64,000 nucleotides of DNA from Paecilomyces variotii. Lineage: Eukaryota. Positions 34,896 through 39,073 of the stretch are shown here, piece by piece; positions within the stretch are counted from its first letter, which is position 1; the number at the start of each line of letters is the position of its first letter. The stretch lies in the NCBI GenBank assembly GCA_004022145.1, contig RCNU01000002.1. One strand, 5' to 3'. The notes below the pieces were generated by a model, which saw nothing but the letters and a program-made list of their open reading frames with translations, had not been told where the DNA came from and searched no databases. A program made the translations under genes and the position numbers.

Positions 34896-36816
34896 GTTGG
34901 AGATGATGCCTTTGGTGTCTTAAAGCTTGTCCGGAGAAGTATATCTTTAGCGTGCTCGATTCAGGTTAATGAGCGTGGGTGCGAAATCTATTCGCAATAA
35001 AGAATGACAGTGAGGAAAAGAACGACAAGAGTCCTCTGGCACAGAGAACAGAACAGAACGAAGCAACGCGACAAGTTGGCGACTTAAAGAAGGAGAAGAG
35101 AGAGAGGATGCCAGCAGACGGAGGGGTGGGATAATAAGAAACGGGGGACCCGAAGCCTTAGCAATTTAGCTAAATTGCAGGGTGGGCACGGGGCGGATCA
35201 GACCGCCAGCCTTAGCTCGTTCGCTGCCCCTGGCGCCGTTTAATGAAGTCGCTCTTCTTGCGATGCGGATTCGCCAGAGAAAAGGCGCCAAATCGGCCTC
35301 GTGCGATTCCTTTGGCTGGATTCTCGTCAGACTTTTTGTTTTCTGCAACGTCGTCGTTTGGCGGGATGTGTTCTAGTGCAATAGTCGGCGTAGTCGGCGT
35401 GCTGGCAATCCATCGCTGTCCTTTATAGAAAATGTATGCTCCCTGAGAACGCCTTGAGATCGCTGCCAGGGTCTGTATCGCGTCGTAGAGTATACAGAAT
35501 GACGCCATATGGAATCTGACTCCCCAGATTCAATAACAGCGCGTCGCGCTTGTGGCATGTTGCTCGCGTCCCCCCTATCTAGGCGAAAGAGCGGACTGAA
35601 TGATGAATTCACCGCACGAGAGAATTTCCAGCCACGGCGGCGGAAGAGGCGTGGCACCGTCCATCCCATCGCCAGCTGCATAAATCTTATCTGGCATTCC
35701 TAGTGGGGGACTCGTCACGTCCCTCACCCGCAAATTATTACTCTAGACGCCACGGACTGTCATTTTGAAGAAAGGGAAAACAAAGCATAGCGGCAGACTG
35801 GTATAGCCTTGGAGGGCACGGCGCTTTCCACACCGCGTTCAAAGTTGAGATGAGACCTAGTCGGCTGGGGGCTTCTGGCTTCTGGGCCTTTCCTTGGAAG
35901 TTGGGCTAGAGTATCACGATGTATGCACATCAAGCGAAAAAGATCTGGACTCATCTGAGCGTCGGGAAACGCAAATCTTTTGCCATAATCCCATTAGCAG
36001 CCGACGCCGGTCCCGAGAAGACTGCACGGATGCCCTGAGCGTCGTGCTCTCGACTAAGAGGCTAACTAAGACTTGCTGGGCGTTTTAGTTTTTGAGTCCT
36101 TGGGCCCGTTTCGGATATCGGGAACCTCCCAGGGGTCAAACCATCGTTTCGCAGGGGACCAGGGGCTGTTCAGCTGTAGCACCCGACAACTATATGGGTG
36201 GACGTAGGACCACGTCACAAAGAGATCAGAGTCGTGATGGTCGTGGCAGCAAGAAGACTGCTGCTGACCATTTGACAGCTCTGACACGGACCACTGTCTG
36301 TACTCCGTACTTCGTCCAACTGCTGATCTCTGCTGGTGGCAGAGAGGAGAGAAGAGTAAGTGGAGAGATCTCTCCTGTGAGTACCGTGCGAACTGGTCTG
36401 TTCTCTGCTCGGTAGACTCGGTACGGTAACTTACTTAGTTAGTGTTGCCAGAAAGGAGTGATTTGCGTTGATCGCATACTCTGTGCTTCCAGAATTGCTT
36501 GATGCGGCTGACCCTTTTTTTCTAGCCTGAGAAAATTACCCGACTGTGATGCATGACACATAGCAACAGATCTCCCGATGCGCAGATTCCGAGATAGACG
36601 TGATCGCCAGGGGCGCTTCTGTAGGAAGTTGAAGAAGAGATGCTGGTTGTCTCGCGGCTCGGAAGCCAGTGGAAGAGGGGCGATGGAGGCTGGTTGCTAC
36701 CGTCATAGCCGCTGGCTGCCCCATGGATTCCCCTCAACTCCATCTGCTCTCCACGCTTTCTGTATTCGAGCTATCTAGAGCTAGAGCTATCAGATACCTG
36801 ACGCCGGGCACAGCTC

Positions 36817-37677
36817 ATGACAGATATCGCGGACATGGCTGCCCGCCTGCGCACGCAGTACGCCTCCGCGTTGAAGCAGTTCGCATCGTCCTCCAAAGCA
36901 TTCGAGGTTGTCGGTAGTGTTCCTGCTGAGCCTGCACCAGTGACTCCGAAGGTGCTCTACGTTCTGGATTCCTCGTTCAATCCGCCCACGTTGGCCCATC
37001 TGAGGATAGCAAGTTCGGCCTTGGCTGAGAATCCGGGTCCTTCATCGCGATTACTACTGTTGCTGGCGACGCAAAATGCAGACAAGCCGTCGAAACCCGC
37101 GCTGTTCGAGGACCGGCTCGTTATGATGGACCTGTTCGCCCGAGACCTACGTTCCGCTCTGCAGGGCTCTGCTGCATCGTCCACTCCAGATACACTCCCA
37201 CAGGTTGATATCGGCCTGACGAAGAAGCCGTACTTCATTGACAAGGCTGCGGAGATAGAAACATCGGGCGTCTATCCCAAGTCCCTTGAACAGGTTCATC
37301 TAGTGGGATACGATACCCTGATAAGGATCTTCAATCCGAAATACTACCCCCCAACACACACCCTGCAGCCTCTGGAGCCCTTCCTGACCCAGCACAGATT
37401 GCGGGTGACGATGCGACCCGATGATGAGTGGGGTGGACGAGCAGAGCAAGAGGATTATCTCCGTCACCTCGCCCAAGGCGGGAGGGAGAGCGAAGGAGCC
37501 AAGAAAGAATGGGCGCAACGGATACAGCTCGTGGATGGCAAAGGAACGGACGATCGAGCTGTGAGCTCTACCAGGGCCAGACAGGCCGCAAAGTCCCAAG
37601 TCAATGATTTAGACTTCCTAGTGACAGCCAATGTCCGTGATTACATCGTATCGCACGAGCTGTACAAGAATGATTGA
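36817..37677 (+). CDS. POF1: Cytidylyltransferase-like / NMN adenylyltransferase family protein (POF1-like)
   Basis: LDSSFNPPTLAH (HxGH-like), ATQNADK, PYFIDK, VGYDTLIRIFNPKYY, VSSTRAR. Single coding exon. Confidence 0.88.
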   Translation: MTDIADMAARLRTQYASALKQFASSSKAFEVVGSVPAEPAPVTPKVLYVLDSSFNPPTLAHLRIASSALAENPGPSSRLLLLLATQNADKPSKPALFEDRLVMMDLFARDLRSALQGSAASSTPDTLPQVDIGLTKKPYFIDKAAEIETSGVYPKSLEQVHLVGYDTLIRIFNPKYYPPTHTLQPLEPFLTQHRLRVTMRPDDEWGGRAEQEDYLRHLAQGGRESEGAKKEWAQRIQLVDGKGTDDRAVSSTRARQAAKSQVNDLDFLVTANVRDYIVSHELYKND

Positions 37678-38038
37678 CTGGAGCCGGGAAACTCTCTGTA
37701 TGAAGCAGTCAAGCTCAGATCAGATAAATGCCGACTATGAATTAACTATGCAGCACGATGATATGTCACCAATTGGGCATTTGGCGCCCTCGCGATGGGG
37801 CGATCAGAACTCTACCACGCATAAGACTGCCCGCCTGTTGTTTGCAGTAAGCTATACTGGTACATAACTGATAATGATGGGCTATGAATGAAACTGTGTG
37901 ATAGATACGTATCTATACGCCTATATATTGGAACCTCATACAAACAGGACGTGATGACCAGTGGACCTCTAGAAACACCATGCATTCCCAGGAAACGCCT
38001 AACCAGCTTTGCTCCTCCCCCCAATTAGTGTCATGACT

Positions 38039-38522
38039 TTAGTCTTCTTCTTCTTCATCCTCTCTCTTGCCTAGCGTATAGGCCAGTCCGCCCGAGACCA
38101 TGTTGACAAAGCAGAGACCCATTGTTGCGCCCCGAATGATGCCTCGTGCACCCCACTTCTTCATGAAAGGCTGCTTTCGTCGGCCAGCAAGGAGAAGGTA
38201 TAGACCGGACCATGCAGCACTGATTCCAGCACTGTCTGTTTTGAAACCATTGACACTGGCGTAACTCGTGAACAGAAGGACCGGGGGAAAGAGCATCGGG
38301 AGCGCCTGGAAGGGTCGCATATACTGCGCTGTGATGAGCGACGCCAGCAGCGTGGGTGGGAATGGATTTTCTGGGATATTGTTAGCGATTAACCAGCCAA
38401 GGGCTGTCTACAAGAAGCCGGAAGCTGTATAATGGCAAGTTGAGCTGCGCACCTCCCCATGCTCTGGCCTTCTGCACGAGCGACTTCTTCGCTGCTTCGG
38501 CCGTAGACTCCGAGCTAGCCAT
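38039..38522 (-). CDS. AIM19: Aim19-family small mitochondrial membrane protein
   Basis: MASSESTAEAAKKSLVQKARAWG|ENPFPPTLLASLITAQ…GFKTDSAGISAAWSGLYLLLA. Intron ~38453-38371. Confidence 0.75.
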
Positions 38523-39073
38523 TGTTCTGGGCAGCGGATACTTTCACTGAAGATTGGTTGTTGGCGGTAATTGCGGAGAGAGAAAATAAAACTAAGTGAC
38601 GGGTAGGAGATGTAGATAATGCGATCCTCAGCAATCGTAATCTGCGGACAAAGCAGAGTGCTGAAGACTTGTTCACGAGCTCTCCCAGTTCAAGAGTTCC
38701 GCAGCCGGCAGCTCCCCAAGAATTTGTGTCCTGAGCGGTGCACAGGGCTGCCCGAAGCTAGCGTCGGCCATCAAGGCTCCCCAAGACACCACGTTGGTTT
38801 GTTATCCTTCTCCAGATTTCCAGGTCTGACAGCCAAAGAAATACAGTCCAACCTAACACTCTACCACCAGAGACCAGCTTGATAGGAGACCCCGGAGGAT
38901 ACAGACAGACACCGCTGCCCTTTCTCGTTTGACGTCTTGCCTTATCTTTCCGTCCCCCGGGGCGGCATCAGCTTCTCCCCGCCGCCACCAGTGGTCACCA
39001 CGCCGGCCAATCCATCGAATACCGTCGAGTTGAAGCGAGATTGACCGTCTGATATCAGTTGAATCCTGGCGCA

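Follow-up and report, generated by a model that had tools for sequence, protein, structure and literature searches.

Metabolic enzymes of fungi can reportedly gain a cryptic peroxisomal targeting signal of type 1 (PTS1) through stop codon readthrough, as Freitag et al. are said to have described in 2012. Here we deal with a candidate of this kind in a stretch of 64,000 nucleotides (nt) from Paecilomyces variotii (contig RCNU01000002.1 of assembly GCA_004022145.1; the whole stretch is called the window from here on), where a POF1/NMNAT-like nucleotidyltransferase gene ends in TGA CTG and stays open in frame up to a C-terminal CRL. The closest described systems are from Ustilago maydis, for which passages of Stiebler et al. 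2014 (PMC4207609) state that a UGA needs no more than CU after it to be read through efficiently, that efficiency depends mainly on the two nucleotides next to the stop on its 3' side and that readthrough of UAA or UAG is lower. Sixty-six U. maydis genes end in TGA CT according to Table S1 of that paper, three of which (RPE1, PGK1 and TPI) are labelled 'Targeted'. From mammals, the same source gives human and mouse MDH1, likewise 'Targeted' by virtue of a readthrough extension with ...SKCRL at its end (Table S2), and mouse LDHB with TGA CTG as its stop context. As for the tripeptide, a 2026 proximity labelling study of the Eurotiomycete Histoplasma (PMC13343957) derives a PTS1 motif, [A/S/P/H/C][K/R][L/I], which CRL fits.

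Set beside these systems, the window gene resembles U. maydis Pgk1, Tpi1, Rpe1 and Art1 in joining UGA-CU to a short in-frame extension within the 3' untranslated region (3'UTR) that ends in a PTS1, and also in its cargo, a cytosolic metabolic enzyme tied to nicotinamide adenine dinucleotide (NAD) chemistry (PMC4207609). Its extension ends in ...DKCRL compared to ...SKCRL in MDH1, and TGA CTG is common to the window gene and mouse LDHB. Unlike the window gene, whose features recur in 0/75 orthologous loci, the U. maydis cases are backed by cross-species conservation together with localisation, and the stop contexts and PTS1s of MDH1 and LDHB are conserved among vertebrates (PMC4207609, Table S2). 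MDH1x and LDHBx are dehydrogenases that belong to redox shuttles, whereas the window gene is of a putative NAD-synthesising type. Our preferred reading, held at a probability of roughly 0.55, is that the TGA-CTG stop and the extension ending in KCRL form a coincidental or very young combination.

The coding sequence (36817..37677, plus strand) is a single exon, given that RNA contigs show no joints inside the gene, and by ORF (open reading frame) translation it encodes 286 amino acids (aa) from the ATG at 36817 to a C-terminus of ...HELYKND, plus the TGA stop at 37675-37677. This stop is followed by CTG (37678-37680), which makes up the stop context at 37675..37680, and then by G at 37681. Only on readthrough of the TGA would the next 20 in-frame codons (37678..37737, plus strand) be made into protein (LEPGNSLYEAVKLRSDKCRL); their last three, TGC CGA CTA at 37729..37737, encode C-R-L, the candidate PTS1 tripeptide, with K before it, and a second in-frame TGA lies at 37738..37740 on the same strand. 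The residues upstream of the tripeptide (K, R, K) are net basic, with an acidic one (D) at -5; the sequence put forward for scoring with a PTS1 predictor is EAVKLRSDKCRL. In an AlphaFold2 model of the predicted 307-aa readthrough protein, the block means of pLDDT (predicted local distance difference test) fall to 74, 55 and 46 for the last blocks (residues 287-307), which as weak evidence suggests a flexible and accessible tail.

Whether the extension belongs to the messenger RNA (mRNA) is answered by contigs of four public runs (four studies, two strains among them) that were placed on positions 36400-38600, contig ends being taken as rough indicators of transcript ends. RNA contigs from two metatranscriptome studies run unbroken from 36609 or 36762 through stop and extension, and end at 37947 (X16) and 37949 (X19), each continuing into a non-templated A-run where the genome reads ...gga cgtgat. 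This gives a 3'UTR of ~270 nt, of which 37741..37949 (plus strand) is the part between the second stop and the site of poly(A) addition (~37947-37949), and it follows that the extension lies inside the mRNA. The earlier note on this DNA had named a poly(A) site before 37740 as an outcome fatal to readthrough, and the site is ~210 nt downstream of that position. Its account of the locus itself is borne out as well: TGA-CTG, 20 open codons up to TGA 37738-37740 and a C-R-L end after basic residues are all where it had put them, its classification of TGA-CTG as a leaky-type context agrees with the published UGA-CU core, and CRL fits not only the PTS1 consensus it had cited but, as KCRL, equals the readthrough PTS1 of MDH1. 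On CUG as such, the relevant passages of a 2025 paper on stop context (PMC12233894) hold no data.

Pof1 is said to have been introduced as an NMNAT by Kato and Lin in 2014. Yeast Pof1 is a nicotinamide mononucleotide (NMN) adenylyltransferase according to passages of PMC7072712 and PMC13191266, and the window protein shares its family with Saccharomyces cerevisiae Pof1, the third NMNAT of yeast (YCL047C), by names, motifs and fold. A total of 1587 homologs were found at E <= 0.001, the best of them from Eurotiales and carrying source names such as 'POF1 homolog C694.03', 'nicotinamide-nucleotide adenylyltransferase' and 'cytidylyltransferase'. Across 40 orthologs two blocks are invariant (D51 S52 S53 N55 P56 P57 A60 H61, and V249 S250 S251 T252 R255), the N-terminal ATP-binding motif region and the C-terminal SxTxxR motif; the N-terminal ...DSSFNPPTLAH... 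and C-terminal VSSTxAR stretches align with 'gsfnPitnmHlr' and 'iSSTkiR' of human NMNAT. The AlphaFold2 model (mean pLDDT 88.2; predicted template modelling score, pTM, 0.88) has as its best Foldseek matches exclusively adenylyltransferases of nicotinic acid mononucleotide (NaMN) or NMN, with E values from 4e-8 to 6e-6 and a probability of 1.00. Thresholds of Pfam PF01467 (CTP_transf_like; 17.8 bits, cut-off 21) and of TIGR00482 (the NCBIfam NadD equivalog; 31.6 bits, cut-off 112.45) were missed, and a precomputed PF01467 match is present on some homologs. The window protein is a POF1/NMNAT-like nucleotidyltransferase, as the earlier note had proposed and as source names, NMNAT motifs and NMNAT/NadD fold agree, and belongs to a divergent fungal branch. 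The POF1 assignment draws on these three lines; that the protein is the ortholog of yeast POF1 and acts as an NMN adenylyltransferase is putative, the evidence being the source names of homologs.

The authors of the readthrough concept demand phylogenetic conservation of stop context and PTS1 to exclude chance motifs (PMC4207609), and this is where the window gene falls short. One search, in which an alignment of 40 sequences was run against metagenome contigs, yielded 80 orthologous loci, five of which were dropped, four (L021, L050, L071, L073) for running off the contig before the C-terminus and one (L054) for an unmatched C-terminus. In the remaining 75 (59 distinct), the gene stops with TGA (44/75), TAG (16/75) or TAA (15/75), and TGA-CT occurs at the stop of none (0/75). 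Nor does an extension end in [SAC][KRH][LM] (0/75), in [ASPHC][KR][LI] (0/75) or even in x[KRH][LIVM] (0/75) at any of these loci, a comparison that excludes the closest relatives of the window gene at ~92% aa identity (P. lecythidis and Byssochlamys spectabilis No. 5), 86% (P0002) and 78% (T. crustaceus). The conserved stop context and terminal tripeptide that the earlier note had looked to in orthologs are thus missing, in that none of the 75 readable loci keeps either. At the nearest ones (L001-L003; 75% aa identity) we read TAA CTT GGC and an extension of LGQLHSCCA; they end in ...ELYKDD, matching a protein named Thermoascus aurantiacus, and their 3'UTR is unalignable to the window beyond ~10 nt after the stop. 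With such a Thermoascus-like locus devoid of the feature, the latter would, if functional, go back at most to the divergence from Thermoascus aurantiacus. Searching genome contigs returned just two distant matches in bacterial assemblies (39-42% over partial length), and viral contigs returned 178 pattern matches with no relative among them.

Annotated proteins of close relatives tell a similar story. The 90% identity cluster of the protein has 13 members, nine of them named (Paecilomyces variotii, P. lecythidis and Byssochlamys spectabilis No. 5), and includes forms of 280 and 286 aa. All 13 terminate at the same position with ...YKND, ...YKDD or ...YKED, and a hard-wired extended form is found in none of them.

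How often such a combination would arise by chance was estimated from stop-to-stop ORFs that span 30 codons or more. Extensions that end in [SAC][KRH][LM] follow 4 of 1349 such ORFs in the window and 18 of 4898 in the 80 loci, and a TGA-CT stop closes 33 of 1349 and 96 of 4898, respectively. The joint expectation is ~7e-5 per ORF which, for a fungal genome of ~10^4 genes, amounts to roughly 0.3-0.9 chance cases per genome. Among window ORFs of at least 150 codons both features meet in one (1/48). Hence the pattern alone is weakly beyond chance: to meet a single case within 64 kb is unusual, yet one is expected somewhere in a genome, and very many windows were screened. A separate observation, on small numbers, is that TGA-CT ends 4/48 stop-to-stop ORFs of the window that reach 150 codons or more (8%) versus ~2% when all from 30 codons upwards are counted.

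Tails of another sort were seen in relatives of the window protein. Of the 120 homologs that match it best, 17 have x[KRH][LIVM] at their C-terminus (SKV, PKV, TKI, TRI, SRI, NKI, GKI and, once, the strict AKM), 18 others close with L, I, V or M, and the remaining 85 end otherwise. In a FastTree phylogeny of these 120, computed with the last 15 residues removed, long tails characterise a single clade (35 rows; support 99) that holds Penicillium-named proteins, with 17/35 tails ending in x[KR][LIVM], 10 in L, I, V or M and 8 otherwise. The native tails of this clade have 4-12 residues and a variable body and end mostly in x-[KR]-[IVM] or an aliphatic residue, further aliphatic ends being SSL, SDL, GVL, ETL and PLI. 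Tailed proteins are P0068, P0072, P0078, P0080, P0083, P0087, P0089, P0090, P0093, P0095, P0098, P0106, P0108, P0111, P0112, P0119 and P0120, and tailed loci are L004 (~1806-1823), L005/L006 (~2338-2349), L007 and L008. Five metagenome loci of the Penicillium type end natively in SKV, AKI (twice), GKI and AKV. While -AKI is a verified PTS1 in Histoplasma (PMC13343957), SKV, TKI, TRI, GKI and NKI are outside the PTS1 motifs verified in fungi. In the window's own clade (23 rows, named after Thermoascus, Rasamsonia and Talaromyces) the ends are short and acidic, and tails of this kind are missing. Judged by their sequences, the Penicillium tails could be a weak native PTS1 or another C-terminal signal; they make it more plausible that the family has a role in peroxisomes, and prove nothing for the window gene.

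Our reading of a coincidental or very young combination would see an ordinary POF1-family NMN adenylyltransferase-like gene in a mould of the Paecilomyces variotii complex, in which leak-prone UGA-CUG and 20 in-frame codons ending in KCRL came together in this lineage only, as far as checkable. A small fraction of the protein, at the per-cent level or lower, would probably be extended and some of this may enter peroxisomes as a by-product for which we infer no selected function, UGA-CU being intrinsically leaky in fungi and KCRL a proven PTS1. Thus, the minor peroxisomal readthrough isoform put forward by the earlier note stands in part: each of its sequence elements is competent, and it lacks conservation in orthologs (0/75). 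More generally, the case illustrates that a leaky context together with a good PTS1 can arise in a 3'UTR without conservation, and that a conservation test is needed before such matches are believed.

The strongest alternative takes the combination for a selected, lineage-specific cryptic PTS1, whereby UGA-CUG readthrough would generate a minor 307-aa isoform that Pex5 imports via the C-terminal KCRL, and this isoform would act as a peroxisomal adenylyltransferase for NMN or its reduced form (NMN(H)), e.g. rebuilding NAD(H) from NMN(H) freed by an Npy1-type NADH pyrophosphatase. We consider it possible but doubtful, and several points in its favour have to be held against the reading we prefer. 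To begin with, the parts are individually competent, since the stop fits the UGA-CU core, KCRL is the MDH1x signal and fits [A/S/P/H/C][K/R][L/I], the 20-aa length and low pLDDT suggest a floppy, accessible tail and the extension is in the mRNA with its 3'UTR of ~270 nt. Then, all three 'Targeted' genes among the 66 U. maydis genes with TGA-CT are genuine (PMC4207609); therefore, hits of such quality are rarely false there, which makes for a respectable prior. Moreover, readthrough-PTS1 sites are patchy among species, which passages of PMC9549241 explain by likening the region behind the stop to an evolutionary 'playground', so that non-conservation at 75% aa identity is no refutation, and the relatives closest to the window gene (~92%, 86% and 78% aa) lie outside our DNA comparison. 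Alternation between a PTS1 within the ORF in some species and readthrough in others is a pattern known for the mechanism (PMC4207609, legend to Figure 2C), and the PTS1-like tails in Penicillium (17/35 x[KR][LIVM] and 10 more with L/I/V/M, among which the -AKI end is verified in Histoplasma) hint at recurring peroxisomal targeting in the POF1 family. NAD metabolism, finally, is already linked to peroxisomes through Npy1 and the piggy-back import of Pnc1.

What keeps us from favouring a selected isoform is that its features recur at 0/75 ortholog loci, with TAA at the nearest. Most of the Penicillium tails (SKV, TKI, TRI, GKI, NKI) are outside verified motifs and, besides, belong to a clade different from that of the window. 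Comparison within the species is uninformative on constraint: strains differ at 0 positions of the extension and likewise at 0 of the 209 nt that make up the rest of the 3'UTR. An extended version, in which a young functional UGA-CUG site sends the KCRL isoform to peroxisomes in the P. variotii complex and Penicillium in parallel hard-wires weak PTS1-like tails, strikes us as unlikely and as a shade less credible than selection in the window lineage by itself.

If a selected isoform did turn out to exist, Eurotiales peroxisomes could resynthesise NAD(H) in situ rather than only by import and redox shuttles, and a peroxisomal NMNAT isoform would be a missing biosynthetic step beside Npy1 and Pnc1. 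According to a review, origin and upkeep of the NAD pool in fungal peroxisomes are poorly understood. Yeast Npy1, the NADH pyrophosphatase, and yeast Pnc1, a nicotinamidase that becomes peroxisomal by piggy-back import on Gpd1 (PMC9549241), provide precedent for enzymes of NAD turnover or salvage being partly in peroxisomes, although they differ from the window gene in having other activities and in using a signal of their own or a ride on a PTS2 protein. With the selected isoform, the range of proteins targeted by readthrough would grow by an enzyme class, a new cargo for a known mechanism. We found no description in the literature of a peroxisomal Pof1/NMNAT or of a readthrough PTS1 in the POF1/NMNAT-like family, in line with the earlier note, which knew of no such description for this family. 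A POF1/NMNAT-like cargo is absent from the supplementary tables in the first part of the supplement to PMC4207609, and passages of PMC7072712 and PMC13191266 make no mention of a peroxisomal location of Pof1, the word 'peroxisome' referring there to Npy1 or redox shuttles. The Histoplasma peroxisome proteome (PMC13343957; text and five supplementary files) names no adenylyltransferase or cytidylyl protein, though an ortholog under another name could be missed; the terms nicotin and nucleotidyl are absent from the five files, as are nicotinamide, NAD and readthrough from the main text.

Readthrough might also occur and yet leave no peroxisomal pool, be it that the extension is destabilising or inert or that KCRL goes unrecognised in its context. 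The acidic D at -5 could be taken this way, as could the statement in PMC13343957 that a tripeptide functional in one fungus may fail in a second. However, the upstream K, R and K are net basic and the identical KCRL end works in MDH1x, and we regard such a failure as improbable. That the TGA is a sequencing or assembly error, RNA-edited or spliced out, with the long form being normal, is next to inconceivable in view of four runs and two strains without any other letter at 37561-38566 or a joint between 36480 and 38370, and of the shared end position of the 13 cluster members and of every close homolog.

Regarding sequence reliability in detail, TGA and the whole extension are identical across the contigs of the four runs, none of which has an insertion or deletion in gene or 3' flank, and the second strain differs at 14 places in 2201 bases, none of them within 37561-38566; contigs can, though, hide rare variants. 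Alternative splicing to a PTS1 was considered and dropped, as no joints were seen in gene or 3'UTR, bearing in mind that contigs drop rare forms and minor splice forms may be missed.

At the 5' end, contig starts at 36732 (X11, which is only guessed to be RNA) and 36762 (X19) give an approximate 5'UTR of 36732..36816 (plus strand). Public models of the protein begin at Met1 (36817, 286 aa) or Met7 (36835, 280 aa), and one has a 66-aa N-terminal addition (352 aa). In the second strain four changes cluster at 36802-36808, just 5' of the first ATG, and a change at 36830 gives A5V. With gene models differing and strain changes near the ATG, the start codon at 36817 is a putative one. Run X15 is labelled metatranscriptomic RNA-Seq and consists of a single 25-kb contig of uniform depth that covers genes on both strands as well as intergenic DNA; this suggests genomic DNA carry-over in the library, and X15 was not counted as expression evidence.

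Downstream of the POF1-like gene lies a convergent minus-strand gene (37918-38600 of the window). Its last coding ORF (38039-38407) has as product a small hydrophobic protein ending in ...GKREDEEEED, and an 82-nt intron (38371-38452; CT..AC on the plus strand) is seen in three runs. RNA contigs of this gene begin at 37918-37920, so that the two transcripts run into or across each other no more than ~30 nt from the poly(A) site of the POF1-like gene. Upstream, one X11 contig has a 50-nt joint at 36430-36479 (CT..AC, i.e. a minus-strand GT..AG intron), which implies a divergent minus-strand gene with a transcript reaching ~36564.

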